A stretch of 46,303 nucleotides of DNA from Clostridia bacterium (GCA_045646985.1 JAZRLV010000033.1:1-46303); one strand, 5' to 3'. Shown: positions 37,025-40,656, numbered from the stretch's first letter. Notes: generated from the letters alone by a model not told the origin. Numbers and translations are program-made.

Positions 37025-38287
37025 ATGAACAAAACAGAGCTTAAAAAAGGAATAAATCTTTATCTTGTAAAGGATGAAAAATTTAAGGCATTCAGAGCTT
37101 GTTTGCTCATTCACAGGCCGCTTACAAAAGAAGAGGTTACGCTTAATACTCTTACTGCGGCGGTAGTAAGAATGCAGAGCAAAAACTATCCTACAGCGCA
37201 GAAAATATCCGAAGAGCTTGAAAATCTTTACGGAGCAGAGCTTATTGTGCGTGCAAGCAAGTATGGAGAAAGACAGATAATTAAAATAGGCTTGCAGTCA
37301 GTGTGCGACGAAGCATTAGGAAAAAAAGGTAATTTTGAAAAAGCTATGAAACTGCTTTGCGACATTGTACTTTGCGGCGGAAACGGAGAAGGGTTCTCTG
37401 AAAATGTTGTAAGCATTGAAAAGAAAAATATATCCGATGCAATACTTGCGCAGAAAAATGATAAGCGAAGCTACAGCGTGACAAGACTGCTTGAAGAAAT
37501 GTGCAAGGATGAGCCATATGGCACAGACCCTATGGGTTATATTGAACAGCTTAAAAAAATTGATGCTGACACCCTCTACTCTCATTACAGAAAAATAATT
37601 GAAGAAAGCAGAATTGATATAATTTTTTCAGGTAATTTTGATGAAAAAGATGCTAAGAGTGCAGCGGCAAATATTGCAGCAAATCTTCCTGAAAGAGATA
37701 TTCAGCCCATAAAGGAAACAACAGATAAAATTCCTTCAGAGGTAAAGCGTGTTACAGATAAAATGGATGTAACACAAGGAAAGCTGTGCATGGGATGGCG
37801 CTGCGGAAAAAATACATCGGGAGAAAATTACCCTGCCGCAATAGTATACAACACCATATTCGGAGGAAGTGCAGTGAGCAAGCTTTTTAATAATGTCCGT
37901 GAAAAGCTTTCTCTTTGCTATTATGTATCAAGCAGTATAGACCGCCTTAAGGAAATTATGATTGTAAGAAGCGGTGTAGAATTTGAAAATTTTACAAAAG
38001 CATATGACGAGATTATGGCGCAGCAGGAATTAATGGTAAAGGGCGAATTTTCAGATGATGAAATAGATAGTGCTAAAAAGCAGCTTATAAGTGCCTACGA
38101 ATCAAAAACAGACAGTGTCGGCGCAATGGCTGAATATAATACTATGCAGCTGCTTTTGGGAACGGACGTTTCAATAGAAGAAATGATAGAAAAAATACAA
38201 AAAGTAACAAGAGAAGAAATAGCACAGGCAGCAAAAGAAATGAAGCTTGATACTGTTTACTGTATCGATAAGGAGGCGGAAAGATGA
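37025..38287 (+). CDS. ymfF: M16 peptidase family, non-catalytic subunit (YmfF-like)
   Basis: LENLYGA, QGKLCMG and IFGG..SKLFNNVREKLSLCYY motifs; lacks HXXEH; paired with the next gene. Confidence 0.85.
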   Translation: MNKTELKKGINLYLVKDEKFKAFRACLLIHRPLTKEEVTLNTLTAAVVRMQSKNYPTAQKISEELENLYGAELIVRASKYGERQIIKIGLQSVCDEALGKKGNFEKAMKLLCDIVLCGGNGEGFSENVVSIEKKNISDAILAQKNDKRSYSVTRLLEEMCKDEPYGTDPMGYIEQLKKIDADTLYSHYRKIIEESRIDIIFSGNFDEKDAKSAAANIAANLPERDIQPIKETTDKIPSEVKRVTDKMDVTQGKLCMGWRCGKNTSGENYPAAIVYNTIFGGSAVSKLFNNVREKLSLCYYVSSSIDRLKEIMIVRSGVEFENFTKAYDEIMAQQELMVKGEFSDDEIDSAKKQLISAYESKTDSVGAMAEYNTMQLLLGTDVSIEEMIEKIQKVTREEIAQAAKEMKLDTVYCIDKEAER

Positions 38288-39576
38288 ACTTTACAAAAGT
38301 ACACTATGACACATTGAATGAAACCGTATATTCTGCCACGCATAAAAGCGGATTGCGTGTTATCCTTATAAAAAAGCCCGGTTTTAAGAAAAGCTATGCG
38401 ACCTTCAGCACAAAGTACGGCTCAATTAATACTGAGTTTGTTGTGCCGGGAGAAACCCAAACAACTAAGGTCATTGACGGTGTGGCACATTTCTTAGAGC
38501 ATAAGGTATTTGAACAGCCTGACGGAAGCAACGCATTTAACGACTTTTCTAAATACGGAGCGAATGCCAACGCTTTTACAAGCTTTGGTGTGACAAATTA
38601 TCTCTACAGCTGTACGGATTATTTCTATGAAAATCTTGAAATTCTGCTCAATTTTGTGCAGACACCATATTTTACGGAAGAAAACGTGGAAAAGGAAAAG
38701 GGAATTATCGCACAGGAAATCAGAATGTATGAGGACGATGCTGAGCAGACTTGCATGTATAACTGCCTTGAGGCAATGTATGAAAATCATCCCGTAAGGA
38801 CTAATATAGCAGGAAGCGTGGATGAAATTATGAAAACTACTCCCGAGCTTCTTTATAAGTGCTACAATACTTTTTATCACCCGTCAAATATGGCGCTTAT
38901 CTGTGTGGGAGACCTTGACGAGGCGAAAATATGGGAAACAGTTGAAAAATGCATAAAAGCCACATCTCCGCATGGAAAAATAACACAGGTATTCCCAAAA
39001 GAAAAGAGTACTGTAAACAAAAGGCGCATAGAGGCAAGCTTTGATATACCTGTACCTATGTTTATGATTGGCTTTAAGGACCGATACTTTGCCGGAAACA
39101 GCAGTGAAATCCTAAAGCGTGAAACCGTGACGAACTGTCTTTTAAGAACTCTTTTCGGAAAAAGCAGCAGCTTTTATAAAGACCTTTATGATAGCGGTGT
39201 AATAAATAAAACATTCTCAACCTTTTATGAATATGAGGACAGCTGTGCCTACGCAGCATTTTTCGGAGAGTCAGAGAATATCGATAAAGTAGAGAAAGAG
39301 ATATTCAAAACAGTTGAAAATGCGAAGAAAAATGGTATTGATGCTGACGCCTTTGAAAGAGCAAAAAAAGTGCTGTGCGGACAGTTTATGGCAATTTTTG
39401 ATAGTGTGGAAAGCTTTGGAAATGAGTATATGATGTGCTATCACAAGGGCGTAAATCTTTTTGACTATGCCGCTATATGCGAAAATCTTACAATAGAGGA
39501 CGCAAATAAAAGACTGTGTGAGCTGTTTAACGAGGAGCAGTGTGCTGTATCGGCAGTATTCCCCAAGAAAGGGTGA
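38284..39576 (+). CDS. ymfH: M16 zinc peptidase (YmfH-like)
   Basis: GVAHFLEHKVF (HXXEH), ANAFTSF, EKEKGIIAQEI and FYHPSNM motifs. Confidence 0.92.
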   Translation: MNFTKVHYDTLNETVYSATHKSGLRVILIKKPGFKKSYATFSTKYGSINTEFVVPGETQTTKVIDGVAHFLEHKVFEQPDGSNAFNDFSKYGANANAFTSFGVTNYLYSCTDYFYENLEILLNFVQTPYFTEENVEKEKGIIAQEIRMYEDDAEQTCMYNCLEAMYENHPVRTNIAGSVDEIMKTTPELLYKCYNTFYHPSNMALICVGDLDEAKIWETVEKCIKATSPHGKITQVFPKEKSTVNKRRIEASFDIPVPMFMIGFKDRYFAGNSSEILKRETVTNCLLRTLFGKSSSFYKDLYDSGVINKTFSTFYEYEDSCAYAAFFGESENIDKVEKEIFKTVENAKKNGIDADAFERAKKVLCGQFMAIFDSVESFGNEYMMCYHKGVNLFDYAAICENLTIEDANKRLCELFNEEQCAVSAVFPKKG

Positions 39577-39584
39577 ACCTATAA

Positions 39585-39767
39585 TGAGTTTGCAAAGCAA
39601 ACTCAATGAATTGCCTTCGGCATGAATTGAAATCAGACATTTCATTAATTGAGCCTACGGCTCATGAATTGCACCTTTCGGTGCATTATAAAGGCAATTC
39701 AATTCATGGAGCGATAGCGAGAATTCATGGTGATAACCAATTCATGACAACGGAGTTGTCAATTCAT
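39585..39767. repeat. Mirror-symmetric array of ATGAATT heptamers separated by variable mini-hairpins
   Basis: ATGAATT at 39606, 39622 and 39664, ATTAATT at 39644, then the inverse AATTCAT at 39701, 39722, 39739 and 39761. Spacers are distinct self-complementary sequences. Confidence 0.85.
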
Positions 39768-39876
39768 TAAAAATGAGTGACATCTAAAATATACACCGCC
39801 CCTGTGTGATCGCCCAAATTTCATGTGTTCGTGAATCTCCATTACAGAAAAATTATCAAAAAGAGGCGAAGAAACT

Positions 39877-40656
39877 ATGAATAATATATCTTTTCCGAGA
39901 CTGGGGCTTAGCTTTGATATAAATCCTGTTGCAATAGATTTACCGTTTTTAGGCGGTGTACACTGGTACGGTGTAATTATTGCGACAGGAATAATTCTTG
40001 CCGTAATATATTGCAGTTTTCTTGCAAAAAAAGAAGACGTATCACCCGAAATATTGACTGATATGCTCTTGTATGCACTCCCTGTAGCAATAATCTGCGC
40101 ACGTATATATTACGTAGTATTTTCCTGGGAGGATTATCGTGATAATATTTCCGATGTGTTTAAAATATGGGAGGGCGGTCTTGCCATTTACGGAGGTATA
40201 ATAGGAGCTATCGTTACCGCAGGAATATTTTTTAAAATAAGAAAGCTTAATGTTCTTAAAATGTTTGATATATGCTGCCTTGGTGTTATGATAGGTCAAG
40301 CTGTCGGCAGGTGGGGCAATTTTGTAAATGCCGAAGCCTTTGGCGGTGCGTGCAGCTACATATGGGGAATGAGCATTAACGGAGGAGAGTGTGTTCATCC
40401 GACGTTTTTATATGAATCGCTCTGGAATATTGCAGGTCTTACTATACTTTCATATCTGCACAGAAGAAGAAGGTATTACGGCTTTACGTTCTTTTCGTAT
40501 CTTGCATGGTATGGAACGGGCAGATTTTTTATCGAAGGACTGCGCAGTGACAGCCTTTATCTTGGCGGTATACGCATATCGCAGCTTGTTGCGCTCGTTT
40601 GCGTATTTATAGGCACTGCGGTGAATATTTACCTTTCCAAAAGGAATAGCCATTGA
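39877..40656 (+). CDS. lgt: Prolipoprotein diacylglyceryl transferase
   Basis: HWYG, ARIYYV, WEGGLAIYGG, GQAVGRWGNFVNAEAFG, HPTFLYES and RFFIEGLR motifs. Confidence 0.97.
   Translation: MNNISFPRLGLSFDINPVAIDLPFLGGVHWYGVIIATGIILAVIYCSFLAKKEDVSPEILTDMLLYALPVAIICARIYYVVFSWEDYRDNISDVFKIWEGGLAIYGGIIGAIVTAGIFFKIRKLNVLKMFDICCLGVMIGQAVGRWGNFVNAEAFGGACSYIWGMSINGGECVHPTFLYESLWNIAGLTILSYLHRRRRYYGFTFFSYLAWYGTGRFFIEGLRSDSLYLGGIRISQLVALVCVFIGTAVNIYLSKRNSH

Follow-up and report, generated by a model that had tools for sequence, protein, structure and literature searches.

Background

Bacterial MITEs and small repeats, such as Correia/NEMIS, BOX and REP/BIME, are short, multi-copy, intergenic, folded and non-autonomous elements, and GNA-type loops closed by a C:G pair are known to form very stable DNA mini-hairpins. 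Intervening sequences of the 23S rRNA are said to have been reported by Ralph and McClelland in 1993 to carry an S23p/PF05635 ORF.

Among structured RNA motifs, the closest to the locus described here is Gut-1 (RF01706), which Rfam lists as a likely non-coding RNA and for which the motif description is that of Weinberg et al. 2010 (PMC2864571). On the protein side, PF05635 has been noted to resemble Avd in the relevant passage of PMC10053308. In the account of the Avd-RNA complex given in bioRxiv 10.1101/2023.10.23.563531, all five Avd protomers contact an 11-bp tetraloop-capped stem, flipped-out bases lie in crevices between the protomers, and 207 of 278 diversity-generating retroelements (DGRs) have such stem-loops, often with GNRA or UNCG caps.

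Architecture of the array between ymfH and lgt

The locus lies in a window of 46,303 nucleotides from a Clostridia bacterium, by which we mean the whole stretch of DNA that was analysed, between an M16 peptidase pair and lgt. A preliminary description had placed at 39585-39767 a mirror-image array of constant heptamers (hereafter words) alternating with mini-hairpins. Direct reading of the sequence bears this out, with eight words and nine mini-hairpins, seven of the words being exact ATGAATT/AATTCAT and one ATTAATT. The full unit is larger than the extent then proposed, spanning 39580-39796 through inclusion of a TATAAT before the first hairpin and a 29-base tail. The features are as follows, with individual words (w, r) and hairpins (H) assigned by reading of the sequence.

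38284..39576, + strand: upstream host gene, M16 peptidase (ymfH-like; Pfam PF00675, PF05193)
39580..39585, + strand: TATAAT hexamer, abutting the first hairpin, without a -35 partner in the window copy
39585..39605, + strand: H1 (TGAGTTTGC-AAA-GCAAACTCA), 9-bp stem with AAA loop
39606..39684, + strand: 5' half-array, w1-w4 with H2-H5; ATGAATT three times and ATTAATT once; compensatory changes in H3, H4 and H5
39606-39612, + strand: w1, ATGAATT
39613-39621, + strand: H2, GCC-TTC-GGC
39622-39628, + strand: w2
39629-39643, + strand: H3
39644-39650, + strand: w3, ATTAATT
39651-39663, + strand: H4
39664-39670, + strand: w4
39671-39684, + strand: H5
39685..39700, no strand assigned: centre (ATTATAAAGGCAATTC), the point at which polarity switches
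39701..39767, + strand: 3' half-array, r1-r4 (AATTCAT) with H6-H8; loops GATA, GATA and GGA
39701-39707, + strand: r1, AATTCAT
39708-39721, + strand: H6
39722-39728, + strand: r2
39729-39738, + strand: H7
39739-39745, + strand: r3
39746-39760, + strand: H8
39761-39767, + strand: r4
39768..39796, + strand: tail module (TAAAAATGAGTGACATCTAAAATATACAC), 29 bases, stopping after CAC
39797..39876, + strand: older ymfH-lgt spacer outside the element, with a GC-rich hairpin piece and the lgt ribosome-binding site, homologous to an 86-bp spacer in a related genome (L028)
39877..40656, + strand: downstream host gene lgt (Pfam PF01790, E 1.7e-71)

The word is concentrated in the array, in that 7 of the window's 26 exact ATGAATT sites, counted on both strands, fall within 162 array bases, and dinucleotide shuffles of the whole 46.3 kb give 20.3 such sites. 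Folded as a single strand, the two strands of the array reach -64.8 and -61.4 kcal/mol (z -5.4 and -4.2, respectively), an energy that beats 200 of 200 shuffles on either strand, and in the minimum-energy fold the GGCAATTCA part of the centre is able to pair with w1 plus GCC. H1 is the module that varies most between copies of the element; a perfect stem of at least 5 bp adjoins the first word in 56 of 69 copies, as against 11 of 190 control positions. The impression that every spacer differs holds inside one copy but not between copies, in which each spacer is conserved. Likewise, the spacer H6 (GGAGCGATAGCGAG), formerly taken to be unpaired, contains a GC-GATA-GC mini-hairpin, and its equivalents in other copies are GCGAAGC or a perfect GTTGC-GATA-GCAAC.

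Full tails in other copies continue to ..TGATTC TATAAT. The window retains the conserved tail motif (..GCATCTAAA..CAC..) in a shortened form at 39768-39796, without the right-hand hexamer. A role of the tail as a promoter or terminator was rejected, given a TTGGCA-TATAAT spacing of 20, weak folds in most copies (-1 to -7 kcal/mol) and no signal in the window copy. By simple scan, neither a -35 box nor a terminator was found in the window copy. This, together with the intact ribosome-binding site of lgt, suggests that the window array is most likely read through from ymfH.

Several arrays are immediately followed by a second small element, TGTAGGG with a GC-rich hairpin behind it (window 39797-39860, G000:C90 at ~9850, L185, L252:15660-15700 and L104). 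The bare heptamer TGTAGGG shows no enrichment in the same genome, with 120 occurrences found versus ~187 expected.

An ORF of 54 codons on the + strand (39606-39770) also runs through the array, raising the alternative that the locus encodes a histidine-rich peptide of which the repeats are the motif. The frame is open and the words do give rise to HEL and IH repeats, but the product has no Pfam match, no ribosome-binding site precedes the ORF, and loop indels of 1-3 bases break the frame in other copies. Moreover, variation between copies tracks base pairing rather than codons, and we regard the chance that the array is a peptide gene as practically negligible.

Conservation of the hairpins and the words

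An alignment of 66 copies shows that the hairpins are kept by compensatory change and the words as sequence. Of 33 hairpin pairs, 17 have changed on both sides (81 cells), a level reached by 0 of 500 shuffles and well above slid controls, which give 4-8 pairs and 7-22 cells. Hairpin cells are paired in 91% of cases overall, and six of the seven helices are paired at 90-98%. The preliminary view that structure rather than sequence is conserved in the spacers is thus confirmed by compensatory changes. In contrast, the words are nearly invariant across the same copies.

The long multi-branched stem that had been proposed to form by heptamer-to-heptamer pairing between the two halves fares differently. 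Changes on both sides occur in 2 of 28 word pairs, a value equalled by 22 of 500 shuffles, w2 is ACGAATT in 14 copies without compensation, and r4 is AAATCAT in 12 copies. In one locus (L075) all reverse words have become AAATCAT and the forward words are unchanged. The lack of covariation between words, taken together with this one-sided change, leaves the long stem unsupported.

On the given strand, loops of the 5' half follow the form T(N)NC and those of the 3' half G(N)NA (GAA, GGA, GACA, GATA), mostly with C:G closure. In the window copy, read on the AATTCAT strand, seven of nine loops are GAA, GTA, GAAA, GATA (twice) or GGA, as had been observed earlier, the exceptions being H1 and H3. 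This loop rule combined with the flip in polarity gives both strands the same design, making the array a structural palindrome. Stem mismatches are rare and symmetric, with 14 G:T, 16 A:C and 20 others in ~2,590 cells. The lack of an excess of G:T over A:C offers no positive sign of selection at the RNA level, mismatches of this kind being possibly recent mutations. As a separate matter, the reading of the locus as a histidine-rich 54-aa ORF was dropped on the grounds given above.

Phyletic distribution and insertion history

The ~215-base element in the window belongs to a dispersed and apparently mobile family found in gut Clostridia. The idea of a repeat class with further arrays is upheld by nine copies in the same genome and at least 118 stretches in Clostridia MAGs. 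The segment 39580-39796 has eight further copies in its own genome (six about full length and two halves) at 81-90% identity, and matches in 18 of 41 related genomes, with up to 15 matches per genome; the genus contributes nine of these 18, out of its 24 other genomes, and another family eight out of 15. The figure of at least 118 stretches comes from an exact-pattern scan of named MAGs with one genome per species. Among the matches listed, the MAGs are labelled Clostridia, Eubacteriales, Oscillospiraceae, Acutalibacteraceae, Christensenellaceae, Feifaniaceae and Congzhengia, and their source is ruminant and human gut. In four gut metagenomes, contig depth is 5-340 over 39574-39777 versus 0-6 on the flanks out to 40151.

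A blastn search of cultured phages and plasmids gave no match to the element, and IMG/VR gave 0 matches to one stringent exact pattern. The blank in IMG/VR says little, since a prophage in one genome (G070) holds six arrays. This prophage morphogenesis region (L252; G070:C43:172000-191500) encodes a terminase large subunit and a P22-like portal, and each of the six ATGAATT arrays in its spacers is co-oriented with the genes; a small Cys-rich ORF (~L252:15331-15510) runs into one of them. Overall, Clostridia of the ruminant and human gut have the element in abundance, and at least one prophage has it too.

Comparison of the ymfH-lgt interval in relatives, which had been suggested as a check, did uncover empty sites. 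The gap between the two genes is 2-140 bp in all 29 other genomes of the genus in which both genes were found, as against 300 bp here, and none of the 13 junctions read among these 29 contains an array. The 86-bp spacer in L028 is homologous to window 39797-39876 and lacks the array, which delimits the inserted block as 39580 to ~39796, inclusive of the TATAAT and H1. The window copy is a recent, lineage-specific insertion into a junction that is normally 2-140 bp long. The site is also polymorphic: one metagenome contig matches 39433-39567 without a mismatch and resumes at 39859, so that 291 bases are missing and ~70 letters stand in between, and another contig of the same run has the filled form. 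Two further scans of metagenome contigs, with flanks for the empty allele, found nothing.

Sharing a genome does not make copies more similar: the median identity is 0.77-0.85 within one genome versus 0.82 between genomes, and by this comparison no recent burst is seen in genomes with the cognate gene (see below). Repeated import, or the persistence of several old lineages, fits this pattern better than a local burst.

Two features of MITEs, multiple copies and empty orthologous sites, were thus found. Like MITEs and other small repeats, the array is short, multi-copy, intergenic, strongly folded and non-autonomous, its sites are present or absent between relatives, and its copies are often co-transcribed with their neighbors. 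It differs from them in that the word plus hairpin is repeated 8-9 times, copies within a genome are not near-identical, and the complete form encodes solely a PF05635 four-helix bundle, with no transposase-bearing parent.

Insertion sites, junctions and orientation

Insertion sites were surveyed in 69 full-length copies from named MAGs. In 24 of these the position of the TATAAT is the -10 box of a full TTG-N17-TRTGn promoter (scored as TTGnnn, 16-18 bases and a -10 hexamer), and nine follow a -10-like hexamer alone. A further 12 follow a terminator-like unit of CCA, A-run hairpin and T-run, and ~12 have the tail of another cassette upstream. Of these 12 CCA/terminator loci, 10 have a tRNA according to ARAGORN, and at eight of the 10 the array begins ~31-44 bases past the tRNA 3' end; the tRNA species differ.

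The upstream promoters (41 copies) have a median pairwise identity of 0.40 over the 35 bases preceding the -10 box and of 0.28 beyond that, and their consensus consists solely of TTG at -35 and T.TG before the -10 box. They are not copies of each other, implying that the element takes one precise position, right after the -10 box, at many unrelated promoters. Array and downstream gene point the same way in 28 of 33 callable copies and in eight of nine copies from the window's own genome. These genes are unrelated to each other, and include lgt, genes for secreted proteins, an ACT-domain gene and a prophage terminase.

Junction sequences can recur at the two ends of a copy. This is so for a -10-like hexamer in 11 of 35 promoter-type copies, where the right-hand hexamer may belong to the tail, and for CCA(GA) plus an A-run in 5 of 12 terminator-type copies. 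In the window copy, TATAAT is confined to the left end. Tandem cassettes occur, even with different words (L051, L067, L058, L107, L137, L158), and one metagenome contig contains a head-to-tail cassette junction. In the terminator-type cassettes downstream of tRNA genes (L137, L158, L124, L167), the tail ends in ..GCCAGA, an A-run hairpin and a T-run, so that its end repeats the CCAGA of the tRNA 3' end at the left junction. In L137 the same ~40-base unit lies on both sides of the array.

Relationship with Gut-1

An Rfam scan of the region returned sub-threshold matches to Gut-1 and Clostridiales-1 only. The Gut-1 match of the window copy (39615-39696) scores 20.5 bits with E 0.22, below the threshold of 50 bits. 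Two sister word families clear it: arrays of GTGAAAT and GATGAAAT that precede PF05635 genes (L099, L098) score 76.9 and 61.3 bits. The inverted 3' half of these sister arrays matches on the opposite strand only and below threshold (37.2 and 33.0 bits), in agreement with the structural palindrome. Hence, the class is not entirely undescribed, contrary to the preliminary claim, although the window copy itself falls below the threshold. As the sister families pass the threshold, Gut-1 appears to be the 5' half of one branch of a superfamily of arrays.

Gut-1 and the window array share a variable first hairpin followed by at least three short hairpins split by one constant heptamer, as well as an origin in gut metagenomes. 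They differ in the word, which is GUGAAAU in Gut-1 and AUGAAUU in the window, and the Rfam model comprises three hairpins of the 5' half only. We found no mention of the PF05635 gene, the tail or mobility in the parts of PMC2864571 and its supplements that were examined. In the openly accessible literature we found no paper linking Gut-1 or such arrays to PF05635, and no description of the mirrored form or of the insertion sites. The present analysis contributes the evidence from empty sites, the tree that ties clades to words, the counts of covariation, the promoter-target pattern, the lack of a reverse transcriptase and the parallel with the Avd stem-loop.

The kinship with Gut-1 raises the possibility that the array acts by itself as a structured RNA, either a small RNA of the Gut-1 type or a 5' leader, whose host function would not depend on PF05635 and might for example be to stabilize or regulate the downstream message. 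The listing of Gut-1 as a likely non-coding RNA in the corresponding entry and description (PMC2864571), with sister arrays scoring as Gut-1, is in its favor, as are the 24 of 69 copies just behind strong promoters, the 28 of 33 co-oriented with the next gene, the folding z of -5.4, and the presence of arrays in genomes where PF05635 was not found. What argues against a host RNA is that the downstream genes have nothing in common and that the ymfH-lgt site lacks the array in all 29 related genomes and is polymorphic in a metagenome. Among the sequencing runs listed as containing the stretch, none is an RNA run. Furthermore, the -10 box abuts H1, so that under the usual promoter geometry transcription would start inside the 5' arm of H1, and the stems show no G:U excess. 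Taken together, we consider a host RNA improbable.

The array was also correctly set apart from CRISPR, its constant part being 7-9 nt (versus at least 23 nt in CRISPR repeats) and its variable parts palindromic.

Arrays and their cognate PF05635 genes

The statement that no cognate protein gene is adjacent is true of the window copy but not of the family, in which a PF05635 gene lies directly 3' of 8 of 69 copies. In these eight full copies an ORF (MKENKLV..; MKENKLVDLSKQFAVDIVNLC..) starts 11-13 nt after the core, as exemplified by two loci with the window's word (L100, L095). The ORF that follows ATGAATT arrays belongs to PF05635 (90.8 bits) and TIGR02436. The PF05635 profile has 18 matches in five genomes, and 14-15 of these 18 genes, in three genomes, are preceded by a mirrored array with a word of their own. 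The words found before PF05635 genes are AGCTAAAT, GTGGTATT-like, GTGAAAT, GATGAAAT, AATGAAG, ACATCAT, TCGATAT/GCGATAT and ATGAATTG.

Within the bacterial order, the family is present in 28 of 45 genomes with 77 matches. In a tree of 40 proteins every word maps to one PF05635 clade, and sister clades carry related words (GTGAAAT and GATGAAAT; GCGATAT and TCGATAT). Each array-bearing PF05635 clade of this order has its own word. Near-identical PF05635 proteins are found in different bacterial families. One clade, inserted in tRNA-Leu, is without an array; its genes lie beside tRNA-Leu in L090 and L091, and the clade is also represented in L231, L236, L238, L251 and L226. The gene of L091 lies between a duplicate of the tRNA's 5' half, on its upstream side, and an intact tRNA downstream, as would result from entry near the anticodon loop.

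No PF05635 gene was found in the window's own genome (77% complete) or in G032 (92% complete, 10 array matches), and G031 has arrays of the window's word without a gene of the matching clade. The tail of the window copy also follows the PF05635 gene in L100, L107 and L186. As this tail is the post-gene piece of complete cassettes, the window element looks like a cassette that lost its gene. It is a gene-less derivative, or orphan, without sign of a host function.

A promoter separates the array from the gene in roughly half of the gene-bearing cassettes that were read. This would place the array outside the gene's own mRNA, a poor fit to an RNA leader.

With 23S rRNA intervening sequences the cassettes share a PF05635 family gene on a small element in highly transcribed, structured places, with inverted-repeat bounds. 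They differ in that the window element lies between two protein genes and not in rRNA, the inverted halves are side by side before the gene rather than flanking it, and gene-less copies predominate among the arrays.

The same set of observations could be explained by the array being folded DNA, in the form of single-strand hairpins or a cruciform, that is the substrate of a trans-acting recombinase or transposase, with PF05635 as cargo. Several features speak for this, namely the GNA/GNNA loops, mostly C:G closed, on the AATTCAT strand, the polarity flip that gives both strands one design, the absence of wobble bias, the precise insertion behind the -10 of unrelated promoters or after a tRNA and terminator-like hairpin, the junction words at both cassette ends (TATAAT, or CCAGA plus an A-run), and the tandem cassettes with the head-to-tail junction contig. 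Nevertheless, no recombinase or transposase gene linked to the element was found, the right-end TATAAT may be part of the tail rather than a target duplication, and the keeping of its own word by each PF05635 clade is left unexplained. The HUH/RAYT connection raised in the preliminary description likewise found no support: the single Y1_Tnp gene of the genome (PF01797, 76.9 bits; G000:C1:7253-7588) is flanked by different repeats (GGGGACG/CGTCCCC, G000:C1:7217-7990), and G032, with its 10 array matches, has no match to PF01797. Accordingly, we view a recombinase substrate as unlikely.

The PF05635 protein and its relationship to Avd

The nearest solved relative of the array-linked PF05635 protein is BT_0352 (PDB: 2RLD), annotated as "S23 ribosomal protein family", with E 5.5e-28 and five chains. 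The profile also reaches Xcc0516 (PDB: 2GSC), again with five chains. A structure model of the array-linked protein (pLDDT 93.3) superposes with TM scores of 0.88-0.95 on 2RLD, 0.83/0.85 on 2GSC and 0.80/0.86 on Avd (PDB: 4DWL), as well as on Avd in DGR ribonucleoprotein entries. The motif residues named in the literature are present in the PF05635 alignment (R39, S43, N47, E50). Across the word families, an alignment of 25 PF05635 proteins shows hardly any variation in helices 2 and 3 (Q36, S43, A46, N47, E50, F60, K63, K69, E70, E73 and W77). Helices 1 and 4 vary by clade, and on the strength of these sequence patterns they are candidates for word specificity. A possible link of PF05635 to HEPN was dropped, as the HEPN survey PMC3710099 gives it no support.

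The resemblance to Avd and its DGRs lies in the fold of the cassette protein (the superposition on 4DWL) and its nearness to the pentameric 2RLD and 2GSC. The differences are that sequence profiles of the cassette protein fall short of Avd, that the array comprises many short hairpins and a repeated word whereas the Avd ligand is one 11-bp stem-loop, and that there are no template or variable repeats at the arrays. No reverse transcriptase lies next to the arrays; PF00078 is found in two of five genomes, in neither case adjoining an array, with one match beside L101 and the other on a G070 contig without arrays, and it has no match in G040 and G031, which have 6 and 8 PF05635 genes, respectively. 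The array-linked PF05635 genes are not DGR parts. One ordinary diversity-generating retroelement without a word array was encountered (L101; G030:C9:47549-50854), in which the Avd-like PF05635 gene is sub-threshold, the reverse transcriptase lies at a distance of 560 bp, and two template-like repeats of 110 bases differ mainly at A positions.

A cassette with a proposed cognate nucleic-acid ligand

The explanation that we favor, and hold to be somewhat probable, is that window 39580-39796 is an orphan, gene-less copy of a horizontally spreading cassette, the array of which is the ligand of the cognate pentamer. A complete cassette comprises a -10 box or terminator-like hairpin, the mirrored array, a ribosome-binding site and the PF05635 gene, often followed by the conserved tail; its array is built of four words with hairpins, a centre, and four inverted words with hairpins. 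That the array serves as a multivalent nucleic-acid ligand of an Avd-like pentamer is, by analogy with Avd, quite possible, if just short of probable. It is drawn from the fact that the cassette's only gene is a homologue of a pentamer that grips a stem-loop. Within an array the words are alike and the hairpins different, and the words differ between families, which suggests that one reader meets every unit. Modelled on the five Avd protomers, which grip a capped stem-loop and receive its flipped-out bases in their crevices, each word beside its stem-loop may be one contact site. Of the earlier suggestions, a protein-binding scaffold is thus the best current reading, inferred from the PF05635 link and the Avd precedent. 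In complete cassettes, binding would benefit the element, by controlling its expression, aiding its propagation, or both. The window copy, having no gene, -35 box or terminator, is most likely carried in the ymfH-lgt transcript with no host role.

An RNA ligand would be favored by the Avd precedent and by the place of the array in the gene leader of promoter-type cassettes. A DNA ligand would be favored by the promoter that separates array and gene in roughly half of the cassettes read, by H1 starting at the -10 box, and by the GNA loops with C:G closure together with the lack of wobble bias. The matching of clades to words could be mere linkage by descent, and the persistence of gene-less arrays where PF05635 was not found (the window's own genome and G032) counts against the ligand reading.

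A broader proposal, which we put forward tentatively and regard as rather doubtful, is that the arrays and Avd-like pentamers constitute a previously unrecognized selfish cassette with co-diversifying, re-codable word recognition, in which the protein would steer insertion into the first bases past promoters and past tRNA terminators without a reverse transcriptase or known transposase, and of which Gut-1 would represent half of one array.

Implications

Gut-1, an orphan motif since 2010, gains a likely protein partner, and the large, function-less PF05635/TIGR02436 family a likely nucleic-acid partner, in a pairing of a 116-residue protein with a 170-base array. The choice of sites, immediately after the -10 box of unrelated promoters or past tRNA terminators, is an unusual form of targeting. 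For genome annotation, such arrays can pass for leaders, small RNA genes, small ORFs or origins. If the correspondence between clade and word reflects recognition, these cassettes would offer a small natural example of specificity that was re-coded eight times or more.
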